A stretch of 62,674 nucleotides of DNA. It comes from Coleofasciculus chthonoplastes F2-STO-03 (lineage in GTDB: Bacteria; Cyanobacteriota; Cyanobacteriia; Cyanobacteriales; Coleofasciculaceae). How positions within the stretch are numbered: position 1 is the stretch's first letter; each line of letters begins with the position of its first letter. The DNA is taken from assembly GCA_040222015.1 (NCBI GenBank), contig JAVJWO010000210.1, positions 1 through 62,674 on the forward strand. The letters run 5' to 3'. Position numbers and translations under genes: made by a program. The notes under the pieces are model-generated. The model made no database searches. It was not told the origin of the DNA and saw only the letters and a list, made by a program, of their open reading frames with translations. Of the stretch, positions 32,326 through 42,864 are shown piece by piece.

Positions 32326-32541
32326 AAAGGGGTACCTCCAGATGACACAGTGTTGACCTCTCCCTGGTATAAATAAACAGGGATTCTAATAGGATACTTC
32401 GGGGCTAATTAAAATCGCGTCCCTTCGGATCGTATTAGAGTTCCAGATCAATAACCTGGATGGCGCGGTCAAAAACGCCCTACGGACCTTGGTTAGATCA
32501 AGACCTAACTGTATCTCTACTTTTGTGACATACTCCCACGC

Positions 32542-33498
32542 TCAATCATAGATTAGAGCGCGGGCTTCTCCATCCCGTTTCCGAGACTTCGCGTTTTTGA
32601 GTGAGGCGATGCCCAACCCCACTTTTTTAATCAAAATACCTGAACACAAGTCTCTGGGCATAGATGCACCGCAATGAGGGCAGTCATGCCAACGCTCTGA
32701 CAGAGACTTAGAGACTCGGTTTAAGCAAACAGCACAATGCTGAGATGTCCCCGCAGGATTCACTTTGATTACCCGCTTACCAGCTTTTTCAGCTTTGTCA
32801 GGCAGTATTTCATTGAGGAATCCTGCTATCCCTGCATCTGCGAAACTCTTGTTCAACCCTGACTTAGCAGATTGACCATTAGGAAGAAAGCTACCCTCCT
32901 CATCCTGCTTGGGTTTATTGCGCCGAGCCATATTAGAAACCTTGAGATCTTCGATAAAAACCACATCGGCTCTATCTAATAGTTGTCCGGCTACTTCGTA
33001 GTGCCATTGCTTTCGTTGCCGAACAATACGCTGGTGCAGCCTAGCAATCCGTTGATTGAGCTTTCGTCTTGCCTTAGACCCAATTGCCCTTAAATCTCTT
33101 TTGCTCTGGAGTTTGCCCAGGTTATTTTCAGATTGGCGGTAGAACTTTGGTGGCTTAACCAACGTCCCATCGGAACAAGCAGCAAAATACTCCAAACCAG
33201 CATCAACCCCCAAGCTATTATCTTCCGTTGGTTTAATGTCTACAGTTGGATTATTGGGAACTGACTTGTCCTCCAAGGTTAGTGTGACATACCAACCATC
33301 AGCCTTCTTGGTGATTAAAGCCCGTTTGATGATAAAACCATCGGGGGTAGGGCGATGCTGAATAAACTTGATTGCTCCAAACTTCGGGAAGATAATTCGA
33401 TTTCCCTGAAACTGACAACGCAACATATCGAGCCAACGAGTCAAACGACAACGTTGTTCGTAATTCGGCTTTAAACGGTACTGGTAGGAGGTGATCAT
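32542..33498 (-). CDS. tnpB: RNA-guided endonuclease TnpB, internally deleted
   Basis: HTH YQYRLKP, RuvC GVDAG / FIEDL / RD and Zn finger CAVC..CPHC. The helical region after LRCQ appears to be missing (318 aa). Confidence 0.9.
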   Translation of the reverse strand: MITSYQYRLKPNYEQRCRLTRWLDMLRCQFQGNRIIFPKFGAIKFIQHRPTPDGFIIKRALITKKADGWYVTLTLEDKSVPNNPTVDIKPTEDNSLGVDAGLEYFAACSDGTLVKPPKFYRQSENNLGKLQSKRDLRAIGSKARRKLNQRIARLHQRIVRQRKQWHYEVAGQLLDRADVVFIEDLKVSNMARRNKPKQDEEGSFLPNGQSAKSGLNKSFADAGIAGFLNEILPDKAEKAGKRVIKVNPAGTSQHCAVCLNRVSKSLSERWHDCPHCGASMPRDLCSGILIKKVGLGIASLKNAKSRKRDGEARALIYD

Positions 33499-33544
33499 CG
33501 GTTATGATTGTACTGTAATTTGCATACTATAACCCCAAATATCA

Positions 33545-33680
33545 ATGGCGACAATAACAATTAGACTTCCAGATCAAGAACTGAATGATCTAAAGAAATA
33601 TTGCCAACAGAACGACAGGACACAGACCGATGTAATTAGGGAATACATACATTAGAGGACTTGCAGATCGTACCGATTGA
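33545..33680 (+). pseudogene. CopG/RHH-like small regulator divergent from tnpB, frameshifted
   Basis: MATITIRLPDQELNDLKEYCQQNDRTQTDVIREY, then an ATAC duplication gives TAG at 33653. Removing it gives ...EYIRGLADRTD*. Confidence 0.7.
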
Positions 33681-33802
33681 CAATTCCGCTTCACTCCATT
33701 GTCGGGCTATCCTTCCCGACGCTGACCCTATCGGGTACAGCGCGGGGCTGTCGCCCAAAGCTCAAACTATTAGCAGCACCATTACCCGCCAACGCTAAAA
33801 AG

Positions 33803-34252: not shown

Positions 34253-34354
34253 AATTTAGATCGTGAACCTCAAAACTCTCTCATTTAGGGCGGATTTTGG
34301 ACAAAGGTTACTATTCATGGCGAAAAGCGAGTCCCTAAACCCGCCCCTACACAA

Positions 34355-34901: not shown

Positions 34902-35264
34902 CTAGAAGTTTAACCCAGCTTCACGCGCCGCTTCTGCCAAAGCTTTCACGCGACCATGGTAAAGGTTTCCTCCCCGGTCAAAAACAACCTGAGATATGCC
35001 TTTTTCCAATGCTCGCTGGGCAATTAACTGACCCACTTTAACCGAGGCGTCACAGGTGGCACCTGATTTTACCTCTGACTTCAGTCCAGGTTCTAAAGTA
35101 GAAGCTGCCACTAGGGTATGTTGCTGAAAATCATCAATAACCTGCACATAAATGTGCTGATTTGAGCGAAAGACCGCTAATCTTGGACGTTCAGCACTAC
35201 CTTGGACTGTCCGACGCACGCGCCGATGTCTACGGTGGACTGATTCTTTACGAGTAAGTTTCAT
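34902..35264 (-). CDS. rplR: 50S ribosomal protein L18
   Basis: [14 protein letters not shown]...[11 protein letters not shown]. Confidence 0.98.
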
Positions 35265-35308
35265 GGTTTTCCTTGGGGATCTACTACTGGTACTCGTGTG
35301 TTTGACAT
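35261..35308 (-). pseudogene. 15-codon N-terminal remnant of iscB/isrB (start of the PLMP domain)
   Basis: [15 protein letters not shown] resembles the V.VVD..GKPLMP N-terminus; its TGA overlaps the rplR ATG (ATGA). Confidence 0.7.
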
Positions 35309-35324
35309 TTGGTATAACCCATAA

Positions 35325-35523
35325 ATGTTTTAGTCTCTTCGCCCAACTGCATTAGCGTGTCTTGGCTTTACCCAACGCTCTGACCACTAGAGCCTAGAGT
35401 GGTACAGACTAGAGAAGCATCTGTACGTCCGTAACTAATGCCGTCTCAACGGGCTATTCAACAGTTGCCTCACCGGAAGTGGTTCCGGCAATCCCCACCC
35501 GTCTTTACAGTGGGGTAGTTGAA
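35325..35523 (-). ncRNA. HEARO/omegaRNA-like scaffold of an IscB/IsrB (IS200/IS605) element
   Basis: The minus strand begins TTCAACTACCCCAC...GTGGGGATTG, then TTGAATAGCC, GATGCTTCTCTAGTC and GGGCGAAGAGAC, followed by the iscB-like start. Confidence 0.75.
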
Positions 35524-35525
35524 GG

Positions 35526-36065
35526 TTACTTCTTACCTGCTTTACCAGCTTTACGTCTAATCATTTCACCGGCATAGCGAATGCCTTTCCCTTTATAAAC
35601 TTCAGGGGGACGCACCGCGCGAATTTTAGCCGCTGTGTTGCCGACGATTTCTTTATTGATCCCGCTAACAATCACGTTAGTATTCCCTTCAACGGCTAGC
35701 TGCACGTCTTGGGGAGGGACAATTTCCACGGGTTGACTGTATCCGACATTCAGAATTAAGTTACGTCCTTGAACTTGGGCGCGATAACCGACACCTTGGA
35801 TTTCTAAACGTCTCTGAAAGCCTTGGGAAACTCCTTCAACCATGTTGGCAACCAGGGTACGAGACAATCCGTGGCGCTGACGGGCAAGTCTGGATTCATC
35901 CCGTCGCCGCACTTGAATGGTTTCGCCTTCTTGTTCAACGGTGACTTGTTTCGGTAGAACTCGTTGGAGTTCTCCTTTGGGTCCTTTGACGGTAACCTGT
36001 TGACCTTCAATGGTCACGGTCACTTTATTGGGAATTGTTATCGGGCGTTTGCCAATACGCGACAT
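35526..36065 (-). CDS. rplF: 50S ribosomal protein L6
   Basis: MSRIGKRP...[11 protein letters not shown]. Confidence 0.98.
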
Positions 36066-37100: not shown

Positions 37101-37255
37101 GGTGGTTATCCTTTTTCCCTGGGCTTGGTCAGGGGGTGTCCTTTGTCCTTTGTCCTTTGTCCTTTGTCATTTGTCCTTTGTCATTTGTCCTTTGTCATTT
37201 GTCCTTTGTCATTCGTCCTTTGTAATGACTCAAAGGACTTGACGAAGAGAAGATA

Positions 37256-41679: not shown

Positions 41680-41839
41680 AAAACTATCCTTTATTTGTCA
41701 TTTGTCATTCGTCTTATGTCATTCGTCTTATGTCTTATGTCCCTGAAAACTCGGTCGGGGCGGGTTTAGTTGCATCTGGATTGGGTAATAAAAGATAGTA
41801 GTCAAACCCGCCCCTACACATTCAACACTCACCATTGTT

Positions 41840-42770: not shown

Positions 42771-42864
42771 AGTTTTTAGTCCTTAGTCTTTATTCTGGTT
42801 GTTCATAATTCATCGGTGGGTATAAACAATGAATAATGAACAATCAACAATCAACAATGCATGA

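Follow-up and report, generated by a model that had tools for sequence, protein, structure and literature searches.

What is the DNA that separates the genes for ribosomal proteins L6 and L18 in Coleofasciculus chthonoplastes F2-STO-03, and how did it come to be there? The stretch analyzed in this study is contig JAVJWO010000210.1 of assembly GCA_040222015.1, which is 62,674 nt long and is referred to below as the window. Its ribosomal protein cluster lies on the minus strand, and a spacer of 261 nt at 35265-35525 separates rplF from rplR, in agreement with the roughly 260 bp given in a preliminary description made from the sequence letters. That description took the spacer for a relic of an IscB/IsrB transposon with its omegaRNA. 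The principal conclusion, which we regard as secure, is that the spacer contains a truncated IsrB-type OMEGA element of the IS200/IS605 family with an intact omegaRNA, located at the ATGA of rplR. Its identity as a truncated IsrB element and its origin by insertion are nearly certain. The genome of this stretch (7.72 Mb, 219 contigs) is designated G000, relatives carry other G-numbers, and C-numbers denote contigs of G000. The features of the locus are as follows, in the direction of transcription.

35526..36065, minus strand: rplF (L6), 179 aa, from the open reading frame (ORF) list; stop TAA at 35528-35526; flanks conserved in 40/40 relatives
35524..35543, minus strand: presumed 20-nt guide of the omegaRNA, comprising the last 18 nt of rplF including the stop plus CC, directly 5' of the scaffold
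35265..35523, minus strand: whole remnant, 259 nt, consisting of the omegaRNA scaffold and the first 15 isrB codons, without the far or left end (LE)
35327..35523, minus strand: HEARO/IsrB omegaRNA scaffold core, first letters TTCAAC, matched by RF02033
35309..35326, minus strand: 3' linker with a small GGU-UAU-ACC hairpin, where IsrB omegaRNAs have their Shine-Dalgarno hairpin (SL7, its role as given in PMC9581776) and isrB its native ribosome-binding site
35261..35308, minus strand: mini-ORF, isrB codons 1-15, with the PLMP domain cut before LMP; its TGA stop overlaps the rplR ATG
35270..35274, minus strand: AAGGA, Shine-Dalgarno-like, 5 nt before the rplR ATG, from isrB codons Q-G-K, its function presumed
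35261..35264, minus strand: ATGA, the rplR start codon plus A, the target-adjacent motif (TAM) by comparison with ten other elements and the published NTGA
34902..35264, minus strand: rplR (L18), 120 aa, intact; relatives share its start

Identity of the rplF-rplR insert

The insert was examined with the HEARO covariance model of Rfam, a search that the preliminary description had proposed. In E-value mode HEARO (RF02033) was found at 35327-35523 on the minus strand (56.9 bits, E 5.6e-11, model positions 1-211/211), and a search of the whole genome placed it identically (E 2.0e-10). The score is under the curated gathering cut-off of 83, and the search at gathering thresholds produced 0 matches in the whole window. 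The second Rfam match listed in the window, RAGATH-32 (12.8 bits, E 2.5), was discarded as noise. G000 contains 37 HEARO matches at E<=0.01, 26 of them above the cut-off, and the window copy ranks 30th. Copies of the same subfamily that precede intact ORFs in G000 score 39.8 and 27.8 bits, with others unreported by that search. The low score of the window copy is attributed to a divergent subfamily that is under-represented in the model, not to decay.

Minimum free energy folding of the spacer was no better than that of shuffled sequences (z -0.51), the thermodynamic signal alone being uninformative. A 12-row alignment of the subfamily, in which 3/12 rows are the window element and its two orthologues, gave a consensus of 48 pairs, 35/48 with compensatory changes. 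The window copy forms 45/48 pairs, copies beside intact ORFs (G024, C178, C162) form 45-46, and copies beside broken ORFs (G003, G006, C179) keep 39-41/48. The HEARO-like stems suspected from the letters are more than chance. The retained part is a complete omegaRNA scaffold and not a decayed piece.

Related elements identify the protein that once followed. Two congeners, G003 and G006, have the scaffold at 90-91% identity, followed by a reading frame with an IsrB start that encodes 163 aa, an IsrB with two internal deletions. In G024, which belongs to another genus of the same family, a 78% copy of the scaffold precedes an intact 399-aa IsrB ORF. Pfam finds RRXRR only, with no HNH, in the 399-aa protein. 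Among solved structures it is closest to DtIsrB (8dmb, E 7.6e-41, full length); IscB chains align with its N-terminal part only. Nine HEARO-linked ORFs of G000 were scanned, four with HNH (IscB) and five without (IsrB, 367-432 aa). Judged by domain content, the protein of this lineage is IsrB, which lacks HNH, and not IscB. Loci that share the scaffold and carry isrB, for which the preliminary description proposed to look within the genome, exist in G003 and G006 and in intact form in G024, but BLAST of the spacer against G000 finds only the spacer itself, a single copy.

The 15-residue frame proposed earlier was translated (35308..35261), and its TGA overlaps the rplR ATG as described. It is identical to the start of the G003 ORF at 14/15 residues, and five IsrB ORFs of G000 share its RVPV..G(K/R)PLMP start. 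This shared pattern identifies the mini-ORF as isrB codons 1-15, which end directly ahead of LMP in the PLMP motif. Nothing else of the protein is left downstream of the scaffold: the 15 codons show homology to the N-termini of IsrB proteins, GKP is the last part of the motif before the stop, no RuvC remains, and the isrB gene itself is absent.

On the minus strand the spacer opens TAA-CC-TTCAACTACCCC and closes CCCCAAGGAAAACC-ATGA (longer form: GATCCCCAAGGAAAACC-ATGA). AAGGA lies inside the remnant at -10..-6 relative to rplR, AACC is present at both junctions, and excision of 35265-35523 restores TAA-CC-ATG, all as first read. The AACC repeat is no target duplication; its right-hand copy stems from isrB codons K-P, as in G003. 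In the subfamily alignment, read by eye, the linker hairpin is GGA..UCC in paralogs vs GGU..ACC in the window copy.

The remnant resembles the HEARO/DtIsrB-omegaRNA (PDB 8DMB; PMC9581776) in its full-model alignment, its G/TTCAAC start (stem 1), subfamily helices with compensatory changes, a small hairpin just before the ORF in the position of the Shine-Dalgarno hairpin, and NTGA at the far side. The mini-ORF N-terminus, RVPVV..GKP, resembles ITRVPVVGVDGRPLMP of DtIsrB. It differs in scoring below the cut-off (56.9 vs 83), like other IsrB-linked copies of G000, and in having 15 codons in place of the protein gene.

The truncation point was located by comparison with G003. Homology extends to GGAAAACCAT, after which G003 goes on with TAATGCC (L-M-P) and the window with GAAACTT (rplR). 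In the complete element of this lineage the far end is CCGTATAGACGGACGGGG...GGTTTTG, followed by ATGA, and has a hairpin. This LE hairpin and terminus, seen in G003, G006 and G024, were absent from the window copy in the sequence comparison. The remnant thus retains the omegaRNA-side end of an IS200/IS605 element and lacks the LE. Its right junction falls inside isrB codon 16, and the deletion spans codon 16 to the element terminus. At the deletion joint, GGAAAACC-AT-GAAAC, only 2 nt (AT) are common to both parents. A deletion driven by microhomology through ATCCCnAAGG, which occurs in isrB codons 10-13 and in the LE terminus, was considered and rejected, since the junction lies after AAAACC, outside the likeness, and only AT is shared.

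Excision or movement of the remnant by TnpA would no longer be possible, given its missing end. G000 has 17 Y1 TnpA matches to PF01797, 16 over the cut-off. An exact 34-mer of the insert has four matches in 185,579 species genomes, namely two orthologous inserts and two G003/G006 paralogs, and neither this 34-mer nor a degenerate 33-mer matched metagenome contigs (0 matches). The closest paralogue, in G003 (L062:3199-3690) and G006 (L063), has an isrB frame with two internal in-frame deletions that take in the RuvC-I region, a second and independent route to nuclease loss with the RNA kept in this lineage.

Insertion site and divergence between species

Is the spacer ancestral? The 901 nt around the site were searched in 40 relatives, 8 congeners and 32 others. 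An end-to-end match (96%) was found only in G004 and G007, both of the same genus, so that the insert is carried by 2/8 congeners and 0/32 other relatives. The junction was then read base by base in 23 loci: G000, G004, G007 and 20 others. In 20/20 of the others rplF TAA is followed by 2-3 nt and rplR ATG; G005, for instance, reads TAA-CCG-ATG, and G001 and G002 read TAA-CA-ATG. For the remaining 18 relatives the search coordinates show no middle segment between the flanks. The junction comparison suggested in the preliminary description thus rules out an ancestral spacer.

For ten other family elements the far end was placed by comparing paralogues or filled and empty sites. ATGA is abutted by 8/10 (C216, C173, C87, C178, G024, G003 with its G006 orthologue, and two standalone elements of 449 nt and 387 nt), TTGA by 2/10 (C162 and C179). 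The HEARO paper of Weinberg and colleagues from 2009 is reported to describe insertion beside ATGA or TTGA. Because all ten elements abut one of these motifs, the rplR ATG plus A was the TAM. According to PMC9581776, the IsrB TAM is NTGA and both TTGA and ATGA are cleaved. The initial proposal read the empty site as a target made of a guide match and a TAM, with the rplF end and TAACC in front of ATGA, and this published motif and the tally together support it. The preprint bioRxiv 10.1101/2023.03.14.532601 places the omegaRNA at the transposon right end (RE) and the motif at the LE, and gives the GstIscB motif TTCAT, which is ATGAA on the opposite strand. PMC9755519 contains no passage on ATGA, TTGA, mobility or cyanobacteria. 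The remnant is integrated beside the family motif without target duplication.

By the layout of IsrB omegaRNAs (20-nt guide plus scaffold, per PMC9581776), the guide would occupy 35524..35543. The presumed guide 19-mer at 35524-35542 is unique in the genome with up to 3 mismatches allowed. In 3/10 other elements the ATGA also begins a long ORF: ndhK (Oxidored_q6) and an SNF2 helicase, both by Pfam, and an unscanned 129-aa ORF. Use of a start-codon ATGA by 4/11 elements gives p 2e-4 against ~3% of all ATGA sites and p 0.16 against 20% of tolerated sites, both base rates being estimates and not measurements.

The insert was compared with its surroundings in the three carriers. Between G000 and G007 it differs at 1/261 positions, rplF+rplR at 39/903 and third codon positions of the cluster at 267/2795. 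Between G000 and G004 the figures are 1/261 plus a 4-nt duplication in G004, 37/903 and 196/2795. Other non-coding DNA differs by ~11% in both comparisons. Fisher tests of the insert against flanking regions gave p from 1e-3 to 7e-10, and a neutral 261 nt at the third-codon-position rate would be expected to show about 18-25 differences where 1 was observed. All three between-species changes in the insert lie outside or at the edge of helices. The nearest flank differences are 29-94 nt from the insert.

Over 3,038 flanking columns G000 is nearest to the empty G005 (3.0%), followed by G004 (4.3%) and G007 (5.7%). An approximately unbiased (AU) test on flanking DNA rejected the three carriers as a clade (p 0.00027); this grouping was defined only once the distances were known, and 4/8 inner forks of the tree are weakly supported. 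The remnant copies in the three species are far younger than their flanking DNA, and the carriers are no clade. For these two reasons the remnant appears to have moved between lineages by homologous recombination, and spread by recombination is considered likely in preference to pure vertical descent. A co-conversion tract was sought, and within 110-120 nt of the insert the flanks of two carriers resembled each other no more closely than those of a carrier and an empty genome. Since no such tract was seen in these conserved coding flanks, conversion tracts are only bounded, at under about 100 nt to either side.

Other elements of the family were compared in the same way. A full-length IsrB element common to G000 (C178, L091:263-1705) and G005 (L104) shows 0/224 differences in the RNA, 3/1155 in the ORF and 0/64 in the end, thus 3/1443 overall vs 133/1201 and 59/911 (11%, 6.5%) in its flanks. 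Beyond its two ends the sequences begin to diverge again after 87 nt and 42 nt, and the empty site is present in G007 and G001. Because the silent sites of the ORF are equally unchanged, this pattern indicates recent arrival by recombination and not selection at the RNA level. A dead element in G003/G006 has 20/539 differences outside the RNA and 3/262 in the RNA, with 99/1838 and 101/3006 in its flanks.

Two further observations concern these species. A 449-nt standalone HEARO element with both ends (L005:1277-1725; G000 C30) lies exactly 5' of the ATG of ndhK (247 aa) and runs in the direction of that gene. Five species (G000, G001, G004, G005 and G007) have it and G002 does not, with 2/225 differences in the RNA, 3-5/224 in the rest and ~5% in the flanks. 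The rpsE-rplO spacer at 34253-34354 has 45-47/102 differences to G007/G004 and only 6-8 to G005/G001, a mosaic suggesting that these species have recombined inside the operon.

Proposed homing and its alternatives

How did such a remnant spread? On balance we favor, with moderate confidence, an immobilized, truncated IsrB OMEGA element that was spread by recombination, with homing as the most likely cause. A transposon with an IsrB omegaRNA integrated between rplF and rplR, in operon orientation and exactly 5' of ATGA. In homing, the rplF end 5' of the scaffold would act as a guide. An IsrB nickase made elsewhere in the genome could load the scaffold and nick empty TAACC|ATGA alleles, and repair of the nicked allele would copy the insert in. 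Homing into incoming or sister chromosomes by guide alone could explain the crossing of three Coleofasciculus species with tracts <100 nt. The machinery encoded in G000 includes the five HNH-less IsrB ORFs and the 17 Y1 TnpA matches. A trans guide function of the remnant RNA is suggested by analogy with standalone omegaRNAs acting in trans with IscB, which are reported in ref. 4 cited in PMC9581776. Homing driven by the remnant RNA with a borrowed IsrB is a tentative proposal, to which we would give somewhat less than an even chance. Its strict form, a homing element that is guide RNA only, without nuclease gene or transposition, and that borrows IsrB, rides on spc transcription and copies itself into empty rplF-rplR junctions, is doubtful.

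Several results weigh against this account. The best IsrB in G000 is only 57% identical to the G024 protein, and no scaffold copy above 91% with an ORF was found in the 40 relatives, in the 185,579 species genomes (exact 34-mer) or in metagenome contigs. IsrB nicks without cutting both strands. A single gain followed by a single loss would also account for the carrier pattern, the inner forks being poor (4/8 open), and the flanks beside the insert are conserved coding DNA, so tract ends are only bounded. Selection at the RNA level may contribute to the low divergence of the insert, as the G003/G006 element suggests. The consensus structure favors the window element, since 3/12 alignment rows are that element. 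The RNA evidence described below consists of contigs only, and coupling of L18 translation to the mini-ORF is a prediction from the sequence.

As an alternative, the remnant could be an inert fossil, present in the common ancestor of six close species and replaced by the empty allele in the G005/G001/G002 lineage, with low divergence due to chance or gene flow. The tree then needs only 2 changes on weak inner branches, flank homoplasies show frequent recombination among these species, and no cognate IsrB was found in the collections searched. However, the shortfall of differences (~18-25 expected, 1 observed) is left unexplained, gene flow should have homogenized the flanks too, yet rplF/rplR differ by 3-5% to within 29-94 nt, and a dead element of the same lineage has diverged (20/539 outside the RNA) with pairs down to 40-41/48, while the window copy keeps 45/48. 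We consider an inert fossil improbable. The RNA and mini-ORF could also be a co-opted cis element, held by purifying selection for L18 translation or for processing or stability of the spc mRNA. The overlap of the mini-ORF stop with the rplR start, the AAGGA 5 nt upstream, the destroyed ancestral coupling to rplF, the very low divergence and the three changes seen outside or at the edge of helices are all consistent with this. For such a role the last ~60 nt would suffice, but the scaffold is equally unchanged over its full 200 nt. In addition, 6/8 congeners manage without the insert, the fold at the rplR start is no better than shuffles (z -0.66), and the full-length IsrB element elsewhere has equally low ORF divergence, so cis selection is unneeded. 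A co-opted cis element is rated less probable still than a fossil.

A still-mobile miniature element of IS200/IS605, a palindrome-associated transposable element (PATE) or miniature inverted-repeat transposable element (MITE) placed as is by TnpA, is conceivable in a genome with two-ended standalone HEARO elements (387, 449 nt) and 17 TnpA matches. The right junction within isrB codon 16 is no transposon end, the LE hairpin is absent, there is one genomic copy, and the four exact 34-mer matches are all orthologous inserts or G003/G006 paralogs, which makes such an element very unlikely. Location inside a ribosomal protein operon would suit an ancestral leader or autoregulatory RNA of the spc operon. 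This idea is refuted by the empty junctions: the insert is absent from 38/40 relatives, no Rfam leader matched, and its homology is to transposon RNA.

The favored homing of a truncated IsrB element can be placed among known systems. Like the standalone trans omegaRNAs reported in ref. 4 of PMC9581776, the remnant has no nuclease gene of its own and sits in a genome encoding several IscB/IsrB. Unlike them it lacks one transposon end, is no mini-transposon, and lies in an essential operon, joined to the start codon of a host gene. For GstIscB, the model of retention and homing in print has the same arrangement: the guide is the flank at the omegaRNA end and the TAM is at the other end, which makes the empty site the target. 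The remnant is oriented like the gene upstream of it, a bias reported there, TTCAT equals ATGAA as in the remnant, and the insert is much younger than its flanks, as homing predicts. The model differs in combining TnpA excision with restoration, whereas homing of the remnant would need a nickase in trans. Homing endonuclease genes, inteins and group I introns likewise occupy one exact site and show incongruence with the host tree, near-identical inserts and short tracts. The endonuclease of the remnant, in contrast, would be an RNA-guided nickase encoded elsewhere, the element itself encoding only guide RNA.

The presumed target in empty congeners was also compared. Between G005 (L035) and window 35526-35545, all 3 differences in the last 120 nt of rplF fall inside the 20-nt presumed target by a post hoc count. 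All are synonymous (AAA>AAG, GGT>GGG, AAG>AAA) and are joined by an extra spacer G. Every empty congener departs from the guide within the 2-3 nt beside ATGA. These differences could be target escape or plain spacer drift.

Context in the ribosomal operon and significance

How is L18 translated across the insert? Ancestrally, L18 translation was probably coupled to L6 termination 2-3 nt upstream, judging by the empty junctions, and the insert would have broken this coupling. The mini-ORF, with its native ribosome-binding site, ends in AUGA on the rplR start, its Q-G-K codons supplying AAGGA. Fossil isrB codons may in this way serve the host in place of the ancestral stop/start coupling of rplF and rplR. 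Folding around the rplR start was no better than shuffles (z -0.66). The mini-ORF sequence ACGAGUA (codons R-V; 35289-35295, minus strand) is fully complementary to UACUCGU in rplR codons 4-6 (35243-35249), and this 7-bp helix would hold AAGGA and AUG in its loop.

The remnant would be transcribed within the spc operon mRNA. No promoter- or terminator-like site was found on the minus strand at the locus, and co-transcription is proposed because there is no terminator-like site. A contig from an RNA library (X1) at 35087-35331 bridges rplR and the element with 0 differences, and a second contig of this library covers 35535-36065, with none over 35332-35534. Contigs cannot show transcript, ends or level. 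A contig of public run X12 spans the whole insert in a G004-like form, and one of X13 has the empty site.

The ribosomal cluster has other insertions and repeats. A TnpB insertion sequence lies between rplO and secY at 32531-33760, with a 318-aa ORF at 32542-33498 on the minus strand that has OrfB_IS605 and Cas12f1-like TNB domains. It is absent from G007, G004, G005 and G001, where the flanks abut directly. Besides the IsrB remnant, the operon thus hosts the relic of a second, different OMEGA-type element. Tandem repeats of heptamers (TGTCCTT/TGTCATT and related units) fill cluster spacers at 37137-37223, 41693-41741 and 42825-42859. These spacers are highly divergent between species (57/155 positions at 37101-37255).

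An omegaRNA remnant in a ribosomal operon or fused to a host start codon was found in no report among open-access papers and preprints. An element that seeks ATGA landed on a start codon in an essential, coupled operon and was tolerated, and its first codons may have become a leader ORF and ribosome-binding site for L18. Near identity of the insert in three species whose neighboring genes differ by 4-6% implies that it is young and spreading, or still in use. In the papers behind this comparison, the proposed role of OMEGA systems in retention and homing rests on laboratory assays. Insert divergence of 0.2-0.4% vs 4-11% in the flanks, seen in the remnant and in a full-length IsrB element, is the population signature that homing predicts. 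If homing is the true cause, these loci would provide evidence from the field for the homing of OMEGA systems across species. If its RNA still works, the remnant would be a minimal selfish unit made of a guide RNA only, expressed from one of the strongest operons of the cell.

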